A stretch of DNA of 64,000 nt, from the IMG/VR virus record IMGVR_UViG_3300027914_001163, positions 96,001 through 160,000 of that record; one strand, 5' to 3'. The notes below the pieces were generated by a model. That model made no database searches, was not told the origin of the DNA, and was given only the letters and a program-made list of their open reading frames with translations. The translations under genes were made by a program, and so were the position numbers. How positions within the stretch are numbered: the first letter of the stretch is position 1; each line of letters starts with the position of its first letter. This document shows positions 23,187 to 26,982 of this stretch, one piece after another. The DNA comes from a virus. Its lineage: Duplodnaviria > Caudoviricetes.

Positions 23187-23668
23187 TAGTCAATTTAAAC
23201 ATCACAAGACAGAAACGGGGCGACGAGGTATGGGAGATTTTTACCGTGACTCCCAACCACAACATGATGTACGACCCCAAGCGGTTTATAACGTTTGTCC
23301 TGTGGCAGATCAGAAGTAAGTTGGCCATGACTCATGTGTTTAACTTGAAGAAAATTGTCGAGACTGGTAATATAATAACGTATATTTATCATTTCAATCC
23401 TGATGAAAGTAAACTGGTTGATTTGAGTTTTAACATCCAAATTCCCTACTATCCGATAATGGGAAAGCGGACATGCGGAGTGTGTAGATTCGAGCGTATC
23501 ATTGATGGAAAGAAATACTGCCATTGGAAGGGAATCGAAATAAGCAAGTATTCTTTCTATAAATGTCCTGAGTGGGTCGAGAAATCTTTGAACTCACGAC
23601 AGGACAAACATGTACATAAACAAAAGCGATCAAATACGATGGGAGCAACTTCTTACCGAGTACCTTGA
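23183..23668 (+). CDS. hypothetical protein
   Basis: 161-aa ORF with TCGVC..C..C. Confidence 0.6.
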   Translation: MIVNLNITRQKRGDEVWEIFTVTPNHNMMYDPKRFITFVLWQIRSKLAMTHVFNLKKIVETGNIITYIYHFNPDESKLVDLSFNIQIPYYPIMGKRTCGVCRFERIIDGKKYCHWKGIEISKYSFYKCPEWVEKSLNSRQDKHVHKQKRSNTMGATSYRVP

Positions 23669-24281
23669 AGAATCCCAATTCGGCACACGCCAGACACCCC
23701 GGACCGAACGATTGATGACAATTCTTTTTACGGAATATTTTGATAAAATAATAAACGGCATAATCTTCAATCAGCAATATCGTTTCTGGAGATTTTCTGA
23801 GATGGATGATTTGTGCCAGGAAGCACGAGCTGCAATTATGGCATCAATCCACAAGCAACAATTCGATCCTGCCAGGGGAAACATCTTCAACTTCTTTAGC
23901 ACGGTTGTTTCCAAGAACCTCATGAACTACACCAAGAAGCAAAACAGATATTTATTCAACAACATAGGCATTGATATTAATGACGTATTCAATAATGAGA
24001 ATGTTCAATACTATCAAAACTACAACGACTTTATTATTCTCGAAGATACATTCAAGGCCATGCGCCATTTCTTCTCCGGCAAGGATAAGTTCGTGCAGTT
24101 GACAAATCTCTTGGAACATTATTATATTCTTAATACTGGAAAGAAGTTTGTGAAAAAGAAATTTATCTCCTTCGCCAAGGCTCACAACTTCAGTCCGGCC
24201 TCGGTGAATAACTTCTTTTCATATTGTAAGAAGATGAAACTTAAAAAGGAAGTGCGATACTTGCTGGAGGTAGAAGATTAA
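23610..24281 (+). CDS. late-transcription sigma factor (T4 gp55-like, region 2 only)
   Basis: DDLCQEA...FDPARGNIFNFFSTVVSKNLMNY. Confidence 0.72.
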   Translation: MYINKSDQIRWEQLLTEYLEESQFGTRQTPRTERLMTILFTEYFDKIINGIIFNQQYRFWRFSEMDDLCQEARAAIMASIHKQQFDPARGNIFNFFSTVVSKNLMNYTKKQNRYLFNNIGIDINDVFNNENVQYYQNYNDFIILEDTFKAMRHFFSGKDKFVQLTNLLEHYYILNTGKKFVKKKFISFAKAHNFSPASVNNFFSYCKKMKLKKEVRYLLEVED

Positions 24282-25129: not shown

Positions 25130-25378
25130 CTTATTATAGGGTAAATATTTGAATGTTGGTTATAACCTTGAAAGGATTTACAAGCCTGGATTCAAATATC
25201 TTGCAACAGGGTAAAGATTTGAATGTTGGTTGTAACTATTCGCTATTCGCGATTCGCGAATAGCGATAAACTTGCAACAGGGTAAAGATTTGAATGTTGG
25301 TTGTAACTATACAGGAGAACTCACTCGATGAAAAAAACAGTCTTGCAACAGGGTAAAGATTTGAATGTTGGTTGTAAC
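25130..25378 (+). CRISPR. CRISPR mini-array: 4 x 37-bp repeats (first degenerate), 3 spacers of 33/34/34 bp
   Basis: CTTGCAACAGGGTAAAGATTTGAATGTTGGTTGTAAC at 25200, 25271 and 25342; degenerate copy at 25130. Strand inferred from anti-repeat pairing. Confidence 0.95.
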
Positions 25379-25410
25379 TGTCATTTTTTTTAATAAAATT
25401 GAATTTTTTA

Positions 25411-25440
25411 TTGACAAAAATGGCTTTAATAAACTATTAT
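25411..25440 (+). promoter_or_regulatory. sigma70-type promoter for the tracr/omegaRNA-iscB unit
   Basis: TTGACA-N18-TATTAT with AT-rich upstream DNA. Confidence 0.6.
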
Positions 25441-25447
25441 CTTTACA

Positions 25448-25788
25448 GTTGTTCCGCTAACCATAAGCGGTGTTCGAAAACCGGTAGGTTAGCGGAAGTT
25501 GCAACCAACATTCAAATCTTTACCCTGTCCTCTACGGCAAGAGGATATTCCAAAGTAACATTTGGGAAAATGCAGATTAGGGGGCTTAAAAGAAATTTTA
25601 TGCAGAAGTTTGAAGCAAGCGTTAAAGTAACACCAGTGGATACTCCTCTCGTCCACTGCTCTGTAAATTCTCATGTAAGAAAAGAGAATGATCTTTGCCG
25701 TTGTCATGAGAATATAGTACCTACTTCAAACAACCCCGAAGAGGCTCTACCTCAACATAAAGAGGAGCAGAAGTCGAGACTATCTGCT
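25448..25788 (+). ncRNA. tracrRNA-like anti-repeat fused to an omegaRNA (HEARO-like) scaffold
   Basis: Anti-repeat 25498-25528; CAGTGGA/TCCACTG hairpin; GTTTGAAG/CTTCAAAC and TTCTCATG/CATGAGAA stems; AGCAGA/TCTGCT hairpin before the ATG. Confidence 0.8.
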
Positions 25789-26982
25789 ATGGTTTATGTA
25801 ATCAATATGCGTGGTAATCCGTTGATGCCATGCAGTTGTCGAAAGGCAAGAGTGCTTTTAAAAAACAAAAAAGCAAAAGTAGCACAACGGTCTCCATTTA
25901 CAATTCAACTGCTTTATGCAACAGGAGAAACCACGGAACCAATAACGTTAGGATTTGATCCGGGTTATGCTCATGATGGTTTTTCAGCCAGGACTGCAAC
26001 TTGTGAATTAATTTCAGGAGAGTTGGAACACGAAAACGGAATGTCCAAGAGGCTACAAGAACGTAGTATGTATCGTCGCAACAGAAGAAGCAGATTGTGG
26101 CATAGACCTCCCCGATGGAGAAATAGAACAGCATCGAAAAAAGAAGGATGGCTTCCTCCTTCTACACAACGCAGATTAAATACTCATGCATCTTTGATTA
26201 AAAAAATAACAAGAATATTACCTGTTACTGATCTTATTATTGAAATAGCAAAATTCGATATTCAAAAAATTGAAAATCCAGAAATTGAAGGGATGCAATA
26301 TCAACAAGGTTCCCTATATCAATATAGAAATAGGATTGCATTTTTAATAGCACGAGAGCATGGCAAGTGTCAGTATTGCCATAAAGAATATAATAAAAAC
26401 GATGGTTGGAGACTGCACCATATATGGGGAAAATCCAAAGATCGTTCTCAAGATTGGGCATTGGTTCACGAATCATGCCACAAAAAATTGCACTTGAATA
26501 AAGAAGAAGGTATTTTACAAAAAGCAAAAAGCAAAAGTTATAAAAATGCAACATATATGAATGTTGTTCGCAACCGAATAAAACAATTATATCCAATGGC
26601 TCAATTCACATATGGCTATATCACATTTCAAAATAGAGTAGATTTACAATTACCGAAAACACATTATAATGACGCTTTTGTAATATCGGGCGGGACAAAT
26701 CAAGAGCGTATCAAACCTTTTAATATTATACAAAAGAAAAAAAACAATCGCTGTCTTCAAATAAATAGGCAAGGATACAAACCAAGTATAAGAAGAAAAA
26801 GATATAAAATTCAACCTAAAGATAGTGTGTGGATTGAAGGCAAGGAATATATTTCCAAAGGATGCCAATCTTACGGAAAATATGTATGTGTTATTGGATA
26901 TAAAAAGAAAGTAATATCTATAGATAAAATTGAAAAATATTTTAATGCTAAAACATTAAGATGGGATTTTTTATCCGCTTAA
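25789..26982 (+). CDS. iscB: IscB RNA-guided endonuclease (PLMP, split RuvC, bridge helix, HNH), 397 aa
   Basis: MVYVINMRGNPLMP, LGFDPG, RSMYRRNRRSR, WLPPS, IEIAKFD, CQYC..LHH..CHKKLH, THYNDA; the in-frame extension from 25399 is the ncRNA. Confidence 0.93.
   Translation: MVYVINMRGNPLMPCSCRKARVLLKNKKAKVAQRSPFTIQLLYATGETTEPITLGFDPGYAHDGFSARTATCELISGELEHENGMSKRLQERSMYRRNRRSRLWHRPPRWRNRTASKKEGWLPPSTQRRLNTHASLIKKITRILPVTDLIIEIAKFDIQKIENPEIEGMQYQQGSLYQYRNRIAFLIAREHGKCQYCHKEYNKNDGWRLHHIWGKSKDRSQDWALVHESCHKKLHLNKEEGILQKAKSKSYKNATYMNVVRNRIKQLYPMAQFTYGYITFQNRVDLQLPKTHYNDAFVISGGTNQERIKPFNIIQKKKNNRCLQINRQGYKPSIRRKRYKIQPKDSVWIEGKEYISKGCQSYGKYVCVIGYKKKVISIDKIEKYFNAKTLRWDFLSA

Follow-up and report, generated by a model that had tools for sequence, protein, structure and literature searches.

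The locus described here raises the question whether an IscB nuclease encoded by a phage is guided by a CRISPR array and a separate scaffold RNA instead of by the 5′ module of its own omegaRNA. It was analyzed in a 64,000-nt stretch of DNA (the window, to which all coordinates refer), which is part of a 191-kb viral record. The phage that carries it is T4-like and large, with a genome of at least 191 kb, and comes from wastewater and sludge. The evidence makes it probable that the locus encodes a functional CRISPR-associated IscB, whose likely role is the exclusion of competing phages in co-infected cells.

A CRISPR array upstream of iscB

A repeat search identified an array between positions 25130 and 25378. 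It comprises four repeats of 37 nt, one degenerate and three identical, which start at 25130, 25200, 25271, and 25342 (period 70–71 nt) and enclose three spacers of 33–34 nt.

25130–25166, + strand: R1, degenerate first repeat with six differences from the consensus
25167–25199, + strand: spacer 1, 33 nt
25200–25236, + strand: R2, 37-nt consensus repeat
25237–25270, + strand: spacer 2, 34 nt, a near-perfect palindrome
25271–25307, + strand: R3
25308–25341, + strand: spacer 3, 34 nt, with a protospacer match in two viral contigs
25342–25378, + strand: R4, final repeat, followed by a run of eight T

The four-repeat array of the initial annotation is thereby borne out, and every other sequence feature it named was also found in its place. 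R1 shows 80% identity and is still 90% complementary across 29 nt to the anti-repeat described below; R2 to R4 are identical across 37 nt. Since the three non-degenerate repeats are identical, it can be argued that the array is maintained. Upstream of R1 a true spacer is absent. When the sequence was read by eye, no promoter fitting a consensus was recognized inside the repeats. A late promoter created by the altered R1 was considered and dropped, as the T4-type motif TATAAATA occurs 29 times in the genome against 31 expected, which is no enrichment.

The combination of 37-nt repeats with 33–34-nt spacers is atypical of type II arrays. The repeat core had no match in IMG/VR, and we know of no host array carrying this 37-nt repeat. 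The array lies adjacent to iscB on the same strand, which is the arrangement of a CRISPR-associated IscB.

Anti-repeat, leader hairpin, and promoter-like site

Three elements were identified between the array and the scaffold.

25411–25440, + strand: sigma-70-type promoter-like site TTGACA-N18-TATTAT, a consensus match with AT-rich sequence upstream
25452–25497, + strand: stable 5′ hairpin with an 11-bp stem and a small inner stem, adjoining the anti-repeat
25498–25528, + strand: anti-repeat, complementary to repeat nt 7–37

Each perfect repeat forms an inverted repeat of 32 nt with 25497–25528 (97% complementary), far exceeding chance in the 2.7-kb region. An anti-repeat of 31–32 nt running directly into the scaffold, as originally claimed, is thus confirmed. 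It is contiguous with the omegaRNA scaffold and fused to it in register upstream of iscB, and its 3′ part (25515–25522) aligns to the sequence that forms the 5′ strand of P1 in canonical relatives.

The previously noted TTGACA-N18-TATTAT site is present as a consensus match. With 11 of 12 consensus positions it is joint-best in the region; the other site of this quality (26643–26670) lies within the IscB ORF. As a class, promoter-like sites are not enriched (11 found vs. 9.0 ± 3.5 in shuffled sequences). Judged from its sequence, 25411–25440 is a candidate promoter from which both the scaffold RNA and the iscB mRNA could be transcribed. A scaffold RNA transcribed separately and a single long precursor, as in DelIscB, are equally possible. 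One contig of sequencing run X1 shares 25386–25421 but has other flanks.

The leader hairpin, also part of the initial annotation, withstood comparison with shuffled sequences: it folds with −24.8 kcal/mol (z = −5.35), and 0 of 200 shuffles were as good. The loop of its inner stem, GUUCGAAA, is T-loop-like, and ARAGORN calls no tRNA there.

The omegaRNA scaffold and its folding

The anti-repeat leads into an omegaRNA scaffold, for which the following elements were assigned.

25516–25750, + strand: omegaRNA (HEARO-type) scaffold, Rfam HEARO 60.9 bits, E 4.7e-11
25529–25544, + strand: hp1, predicted perfect 5-bp hairpin at the position of the relatives' first nested omegaRNA hairpin
25548–25567, + strand: hp2, predicted hairpin at the position of the relatives' second nested hairpin
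25571–25578, + strand: 3′ strand of the ancestral P1 stem

The HEARO score stays below the gathering score of the family (83) because the 5′ module fits poorly. The scaffold lies upstream of iscB on the same strand, as in other IscB loci, and only this 5′ module departs: on sequence grounds, the position of the omegaRNA guide and the P1 5′ strand is here occupied by the anti-repeat. From about 25529 onward the scaffold aligns with those of canonical relatives, and covariation supports a common structure, as compensatory changes occur in 37 of the 61 pairs of the consensus with the omegaRNAs of six relatives. A 194-nt metatranscriptome contig equals the scaffold core (25548–25741) without differences, in a library that could contain DNA. 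Parts of the locus left uncovered in the sequencing runs were given no weight.

Less of the proposed duplex geometry could be retained. An 8-nt bulge followed by a lower stem between GCAAG and the start of the repeat had been suggested. GCAAG is indeed present at 25537–25541, but it lies within hp1, which scores better than its pairing with the repeat, and forcing this pairing costs 6–9 kcal/mol; bulge and lower stem are therefore probably wrong. The window bases fit the consensus pairs of hp1 poorly and those of hp2 better. When repeat and scaffold were co-folded at full length, the repeat paired at its 5′ end with 25571–25578 and not with GCAAG at 25537–25541. A pairing of the repeat start with another GCAAG (25614–25618) was an artefact of truncated co-folds. 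For 25571–25578 the predicted partner is 25515–25522 in the absence of crRNA and the repeat 5′ end with crRNA bound. Scaffold and crRNA together fold with −152 kcal/mol, compared to −104 kcal/mol for the scaffold alone. The scaffold RNA may have two folds, a canonical omegaRNA fold with its own P1 and a crRNA-bound fold in which the repeat 5′ end takes the P1 3′ strand.

The IscB protein and its genomic setting

The scaffold is followed by the gene of the nuclease.

25789–26982, + strand: iscB, 397 aa, with PLMP motif, split RuvC, HNH, and C-terminal beta-rich domain

The Pfam domain RRXRR was found at residues 2–174 (1.8e-57), with the PLMP motif at residues 11–14; the Pfam HNH domain reaches 21.6 bits at a cut-off of 21.4. 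The residues D57, E152, H292, D295, H210, and H211 occupy invariant columns in an alignment of 29 sequences and align to OgeuIscB, so that the assignment as a 397-aa IscB with intact RuvC D/E/H/D stands. The same alignment shows no variation at the Zn ligands C194, C197, H227, and C230. An Asp replacing the central Asn is common to the whole clade. IscB entries of the PDB were matched with 3e-39. The AlphaFold2 model (mean pLDDT 73) has IscB-omegaRNA complexes as its top Foldseek matches (E 3e-22), whereas Cas9 matches reach 1e-6 or weaker and the fold is without a REC lobe. Protein family, fold, and catalytic residues are thus those of canonical IscB (OgeuIscB, PDB 7UTN/7XHT; Rfam HEARO RF02033).

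iscB and the gene for the terminase large subunit are convergent, and the 3′ end of the latter overlaps the last 12 nt of iscB. A search for relatives of this terminase yielded no related phage. The lack of cas1, cas2, and tnpA claimed for the window holds for the entire 191-kb record, where Cas1, Cas2, and a Y1 transposase are absent; as this record is 83% complete, genes could be missing from it. It contains a single RRXRR protein and a single HEARO match, and thus no second IscB, and no phage-encoded RNase III was found in it. An IS200/IS605 context with TnpA and transposon ends is not present, and many other IscBs are also without TnpA. These results support a CRISPR-associated IscB on a large phage without adaptation or transposase genes, in which the anti-repeat replaces the 5′ module of the omegaRNA. 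With cas1 and cas2 missing, the locus offers no account of where its spacers came from. It could have acquired the array in finished form, and a match to a phage would then reflect the history of another system.

A natural target of spacer 3

A target was detected for one of the three spacers, namely spacer 3, which is nearest to the scaffold. It matches two viral contigs of IMG/VR (L083 and L084) at 32 of 34 positions; the 16 repeat-proximal (3′) nucleotides match perfectly and both mismatches lie outside of them. The spacer also matches abundant contigs from three wastewater or digester runs (X1–X3), with a depth of 117 for the target contig in X3. In the X1–X3 contigs the limits of the match are exactly those of the 34-nt spacer, and both flanks differ from the window. 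In L083 and L084 the protospacer covers the ribosome-binding site and the ATG of a gene for a DUF2800/PD-(D/E)XK exonuclease. The target contigs encode a terminase, an HNH protein, and the DUF2800 exonuclease, and have no homology to the array-bearing phage. The 3′ flank of the protospacer is A-rich (AAAAG...) and, by its sequence, a candidate TAM.

The GenBank phage set contained no match to spacer 3, and no array spacer matched the genome of its own phage outside the array. Exact 18-mers of spacers 1 and 2 were absent from the viral contigs. Their 27 hits each in metagenome and genome contigs were regarded as chance, since they consist of an 18-mer only, with 7–15 mismatches across the full spacer. 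A match of spacer 2 to syn9-type cyanophages beside tRNA-Ala (26/30) was not counted, as it reflects a similar palindromic hairpin (E 0.1).

The initial annotation had considered competition between phages, and the protospacer of spacer 3 in an unrelated, co-occurring phage directly supports this idea. As the protospacer belongs to an unrelated phage of the same samples, the exclusion of competing phages is the likely role of the system.

Proposed mechanism and alternative explanations

For transcription pattern, processing, guide length, TAM, and cleavage we infer the following course. The array would give rise to a + strand transcript, probably because transcription of the + strand gene block upstream reads through into it. 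In each unit of a spacer and the repeat after it, repeat nt 7–37 would pair with the scaffold RNA, whose 5′ end carries the 31-nt anti-repeat, and processing by host RNase III, with trimming, would yield a duplex of crRNA and scaffold. Once loaded with this duplex, the 397-aa IscB would be guided by the repeat-proximal end of the spacer, about 16 nt long, and would cut double-stranded DNA in which the protospacer has a TAM on its 3′ side. In the case of spacer 3, the guide would direct it to an unrelated phage of the same samples, at the start of a gene for a recombination exonuclease.

It is possible, though we doubt it, that the system is real but not truly dual-RNA. Array and scaffold would then form one long precursor, in which mainly spacer 3 with R4 folds onto the anti-repeat across a 119-nt linker, and the TTGACA promoter would serve the iscB mRNA only or be unused. 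An ncRNA holding both array and anti-repeat has been reported for DelIscB (PMC12660989), no terminator was predicted on the + strand between array and scaffold, and the only spacer with a target adjoins the scaffold side. In other phage-borne IscBs linked to arrays, the last repeat is located about 6–70 nt from the anti-repeat. Here, however, the 11/12 promoter with its AT-rich upstream sequence and a very stable 5′ hairpin lie exactly between R4 and the anti-repeat, a T8 run follows the last repeat, and three identical repeats are retained though one would suffice.

Very unlikely is an origin of the repeats in a host CRISPR system, by which they would act as RNA anti-CRISPR-type decoys or regulators and the spacers would not guide IscB. 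Regulatory or counter-defence functions have been documented for viral mini-arrays and for stand-alone repeats, and the absent adaptation genes, the repeat and spacer lengths unlike type II, and a solitary repeat elsewhere in the genome under a promoter would agree with such a role. An anti-repeat at the guide/P1 position of IscB's own scaffold, however, only makes sense if IscB reads the repeats; the presence of a cognate effector with an anti-repeat argues against membership in the mini-array class, and the missing repeat match in IMG/VR speaks against the decoy or regulator role.

A canonical homing element, with 25515–25522 and 25571–25578 as P1, 25499–25514 as its sole guide, and the repeats as inverted partial copies of its left end without guide function, is extremely improbable: its P1 can still form within the molecule, with two both-sides changes relative to six relatives, and the close relatives are all one-piece elements scattered in phage genomes, but two kept pairs out of three double changes are not significant, matches of the would-be guide are confined to this locus and its repeats, the folding energies given above greatly favour the 31-bp intermolecular duplex, and a protospacer with exact spacer boundaries would be left unexplained.

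Relatives and known systems

The six closest relatives of this IscB (L007–L009 and L080–L082; 56–62% identity) lack arrays and have one-piece omegaRNAs of the canonical type; the link to an array therefore arose separately in this lineage. In the tree of viral IscBs, the array label needs at least three separate changes. The omegaRNAs of the six relatives score 86–120 bits with HEARO, in contrast to 60.9 here, and their guide is the DNA flanking the element. Several canonical relatives are likewise located in large phage-like contigs. Close relatives of the 397-aa IscB are absent from IMG/VR.

CRISPR-associated IscBs with an array and an anti-repeat were reportedly described in 2021. The novelty initially assigned to the locus was overstated, as the same architecture has been published for DelIscB, a protein of 457 aa with the TAM NAC, for which guide use and cleavage were shown experimentally (PMC12660989). 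Both systems share an IscB without REC lobe and an array located upstream on the same strand; in both, the anti-repeat is linked to a scaffold of the omegaRNA type in the 5′ region of the gene, and a transposase is lacking (PMC12660989). Compared to the published description of DelIscB, the IscB studied here is 60 aa shorter and encoded by a large phage, a promoter-like site and a stable hairpin are inserted between last repeat and anti-repeat, and a solitary repeat 24 kb away and a natural protospacer in another phage are found. In addition, the clade in which its array link arose consists otherwise of canonical IscBs.

Other phage-borne array-linked IscB-like loci (IMG/VR; L065, L068, and L070–L078) lie on viral contigs of 80–250 kb and have a small array directly upstream, an anti-repeat close to the last repeat, and a HEARO-like scaffold. 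Their proteins of 472–521 aa are only 31–41% identical to the IscB described here, and L068 and L070–L078 carry 36-nt repeats of the GTTTTAGA type. The logic is that of type II CRISPR-Cas9, in that spacer-repeat RNAs would pair with the anti-repeat of a scaffold RNA whose gene adjoins that of an HNH/RuvC nuclease; a dependence on RNase III is likely. The locus is nevertheless not a type II system: it has no REC lobe and no cas1, cas2, or csn2, its scaffold is of the omegaRNA type with a pseudoknot-rich core, and Cas9 structures are distant fold matches.

A solitary repeat upstream of a phage gene

A further copy of the repeat was identified 24 kb from the array.

1119–1155, + strand: solitary repeat, 34 of 37 nt identical to the array repeat, the first 32 nt without difference

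It directly follows a copy of a promoter family (1089–1118), and its end lies 1 nt ahead of GGGAGG, the ribosome-binding site of a small ORF (1170–1439). According to prediction, it can pair fully with the anti-repeat. That the scaffold RNA switches between its two folds and that, at the same time, the solitary repeat makes the 5′ leader of a phage mRNA a site for scaffold RNA and IscB is a speculative joint reading, which we consider unlikely.

Significance

The locus is a well-supported new example of a published wiring and not a new system, and the known picture of the IscB family is unchanged. New are the target of spacer 3, the separate origin of the array link, and the solitary repeat between a promoter and a ribosome-binding site. 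With 397 aa and a multi-guide array, the functional array-guided IscB considered probable here would be among the smallest natural Cas9-like nucleases programmed by an array, and its natural target supplies a candidate TAM. The one-piece relatives, which are about 60% identical, allow a base-by-base alignment, and they show which part of the omegaRNA, guide and P1 5′ strand, turned into the anti-repeat; this comparison bears on the origin of tracrRNA. If the joint reading of the two folds and the solitary repeat is true, the locus would be a living intermediate of the transition from omegaRNA to tracrRNA, recent among one-piece relatives, and the IscB system would have a second function in the RNA-level control of a phage gene, either through cleavage by RNase III or by making the ribosome-binding site inaccessible. 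Ecologically, the locus would be an example of a phage that turns an RNA-guided nuclease against an unrelated phage of greater abundance in the same community.

Architecture of the CRISPR-linked iscB locus

The array, anti-repeat, promoter-like site, hairpin, scaffold and 397-aa IscB described in the initial annotation were all confirmed by sequence analysis. The following features were identified on the plus strand:

25130-25378, CRISPR array with four repeats of 37 nt, the first degenerate and the other three identical, and spacers of 33, 34 and 34 nt
downstream of the last repeat and ahead of the anti-repeat, a T-run
same interval, promoter-like TTGACA-N18-TATTAT with 11/12 consensus matches
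25452-25497, same interval, a hairpin (z = -5.35)
25497-25528, anti-repeat of 32 nt, 97% complementary to each perfect repeat
25516-25750, omegaRNA-type scaffold (Rfam HEARO match with E 4.7e-11, below the gathering score)
25789-26982, ORF coding for the 397-aa IscB

The inner stem-loop of the hairpin (25466-25483) has a GUUCGAAA loop resembling the T-loop of tRNAs and could be a processing signal setting the 5′ end of the anti-repeat; no tRNA was called by ARAGORN at this hairpin. A 36-nt segment containing the AT-rich and -35 sequences (25386-25421) recurs with different flanks in a contig of the public sequencing run X1. The downstream flank of this contig ends in the same GTTGTTCC with which the hairpin region of the window starts, so the contig may represent a related locus of a different phage.

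Predicted folding and possible expression of the scaffold RNA

The alignment of the scaffold to the HEARO model is poor across the first ~60 model positions and good thereafter. Its homology to the omegaRNAs of the six closest IscB relatives with available DNA starts at two nested hairpins and continues onward, and the consensus structure of all seven comprises 61 pairs, of which 37 show compensatory changes. The position of the variable guide and the 5′ strand of P1, a stem of canonical omegaRNAs, is occupied by the anti-repeat in the window.

Co-folding of an RNA consisting of spacer 3 and the repeat with 25447-25788 firmly predicts a long repeat:anti-repeat duplex of 31 bp (repeat nt 7-37 with 25498-25528), next to which hairpins at 25529-25544 and 25548-25567 are also formed. 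The initial annotation had proposed an 8-nt bulge followed by a lower stem between the start of the repeat and GCAAG (25537-25541). This is probably wrong, since GCAAG sits within the first of these hairpins and forcing the pairing costs 6-9 kcal/mol in the model. In the full-length co-fold, the first bases of the repeat and the last bases of the spacer pair instead with 25571-25578, the ancestral 3′ strand of P1. For the scaffold without crRNA, a stem like that of the relatives is predicted to be possible, between 25515-25522 and 25571-25578; the evidence for this intramolecular P1 is weak, because it comes from a single sequence in which two double changes keep the pairing and one breaks it.

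The sole RNA match is a 194-nt contig, giving neither strand nor ends, from a metatranscriptome of activated sludge; it is identical to 25548-25741, the core of the scaffold. Such a contig would fit a stable scaffold RNA, DNA carry-over being a possible source as well.

The IscB protein and the origin of its array link

The protein contains RRXRR and HNH domains and a PLMP motif, is homologous in sequence to solved IscBs, and its predicted fold matches IscB-omegaRNA complexes best. All catalytic residues of RuvC and HNH lie in invariant alignment columns. In the HNH domain the central Asn is replaced by Asp and a zinc pair of the type H-x2-C is found; as both are common to all 29 aligned relatives, the alignment identifies them as a clade trait and not as decay.

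The nearest IscB proteins (56-62% identity) are encoded among unrelated neighbouring genes, either on phage-like contigs (166-192 kb) or on short ones. The six relatives with DNA have canonical omegaRNAs (86-120 bits), and none of the six is accompanied by an array. Three of them (L007, L008 and L009; 56-58% identity) are canonical IscB-omegaRNA elements at different sites of 166-192 kb phage-like contigs, with neighbours including NAPRTase and NAD synthase genes, recA and methylases, and tail sheath and tube genes. These locations make it evident that IscB moves between large phages.

A tree of 68 IscBs, taken from viral and assembly loci, places the window IscB in a clade of seven members (SH-aLRT 98) together with the six array-less relatives. 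The other array-linked viral proteins, of 472-521 aa (L065 and the L068/L070-L078 clade), are placed elsewhere, and at least three changes of the array label are needed. By this placement, the array link in the window lineage is an independent and relatively recent event.

These array-linked proteins come from a dozen contigs in IMG/VR, 80-250 kb long, in which arrays lie directly upstream of IscB-like proteins with weak HEARO matches. The repeats in L068 and L070-L078 (about 1800-2510) are of the GTTTTAGA type, 36 nt long and with a period of 66 nt, which is also the period of the array in L065 (1670-2492). An anti-repeat lies near the last repeat, at a distance of about 6 nt in L077. On the sequences of these contigs, the phage setting of CRISPR-linked IscB is a recurrent one; our literature search found no paper describing a phage-borne CRISPR-associated IscB.

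Targets of the spacers

In three DNA runs, contigs match precisely the 34 nt of spacer 3 (25308-25341), with two differences and unrelated flanks, at a depth of 117 in the digester run. With the flank of this protospacer, two IMG/VR viral contigs of 5.8 and 9.7 kb (L083 and L084) were found, which are ~89% identical to each other and share one 34-nt site. Its 16 nt on the repeat side are identical to spacer 3, and the mismatches are at positions 17 and 22 counted from that end. A match of 32/34 at the exact spacer boundaries is estimated to arise by chance well under once per million in data of this size.

The site spans both the ribosome-binding site and the start codon (ATG) of a DUF2800/PD-(D/E)XK exonuclease gene. 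Spacer 3 has mRNA sense, so that its guide would be complementary to a DNA strand but not to the transcript. On its 3′ side the protospacer is flanked by AAAAG, a candidate TAM; in the self copy, the repeat occupies this position instead. The target contigs further encode a terminase and an HNH endonuclease, have a G+C content of 50% compared to 39% in the window, and no homology to this phage was found in them. The earlier suggestion of a role in phage competition is thus strengthened by a protospacer in unrelated phage contigs.

For spacers 1 and 2, searches of viral, metagenome and genome sequences gave no convincing target, and none of the spacers has a match elsewhere in the phage's own genome. 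Spacer 2 (25237-25270) is an almost perfect 12+12 palindrome, the RNA of which would fold on itself; it looks like an operator or terminator site.

A solitary repeat and the host phage

A further repeat copy and a promoter family were identified:

1119-1155, solitary repeat, the first 32 nt identical to the array repeat, with three differences, all in the last five bases
window 10947 and 1089; genome 81117, 175449, 163343(-), 159318(-) and 187333, copies of the promoter family

The family, with about seven copies in the genome, has a conserved TTTTGCACGAATTTT box ~15 nt upstream of TTGACA, then AATTATCATAC, the start of the promoter spacer being shared. It is probably the early-promoter class of the phage. 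In the region 1089-1439, a copy with a weaker -10 region precedes the solitary repeat, which ends 1 nt ahead of the GGGAGG of a small ORF (1170-1439) encoding 89 aa with a hydrophobic N-terminal stretch and no family match. The solitary repeat is predicted to keep its full pairing potential with the anti-repeat. Transcription at the usual distance from the 1089 promoter would start inside it and would provide the mRNA with an anti-repeat-binding segment as 5′ leader. Possibly, this forms a regulatory link, by binding of the scaffold RNA or RNase III cutting of the leader; regulatory functions of stand-alone repeats have been documented for CRISPR systems.

The source record is linear, has a length of 191 kb (the window being bases 96001-160000) and an estimated completeness of 83%. 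It contains one IscB and one omegaRNA, and no Cas1, Cas2, Y1 transposase or RNase III was found across this 83% complete record. The window encodes a terminase large subunit, T4-type baseplate proteins, a DnaB-type helicase and eight tRNAs. As the terminase shares only ~26% identity with its counterparts in known T4-like cyanophages, the phage is a distant, uncultured member of the broad T4-like group. Parts of the region were found in sequencing runs of wastewater, an anaerobic digester and activated sludge. At the end of a long plus-strand gene block, the IscB cassette is wedged in before the packaging gene; the last 12 nt of iscB (+) overlap the 3′ end of the terminase large-subunit gene (-) at 26971-26982. 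A weak match to Sigma-70 region 2 (E 0.007, below the cut-off) makes a 223-aa protein (23610-24281) a possible sigma-like factor of the phage; the late-promoter motif of T4 shows no enrichment in this genome.

Comparison with known CRISPR-associated IscBs

CRISPR-associated IscBs were reported in 2021. The published DelIscB (457 aa, TAM NAC), for which DNA cleavage was demonstrated and which was later engineered, has an ncRNA with array and anti-repeat upstream of its gene (PMC12660989). The locus in the window has the same wiring, with array, anti-repeat and scaffold upstream of iscB, but differs in being carried on a phage, in its smaller IscB, in the promoter-like site and hairpin between array and anti-repeat, in the solitary repeat of its phage, in having an identified natural target and in the independent origin of its array link. 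The core of the initial reading, a CRISPR-associated IscB with an anti-repeat on its scaffold, was right; a scaffold RNA transcribed separately from its own promoter is one possible arrangement. The novelty was overstated, as this wiring had already been published for DelIscB. As judged from its sequence, the locus is a further example of the already known CRISPR-associated IscB architecture.
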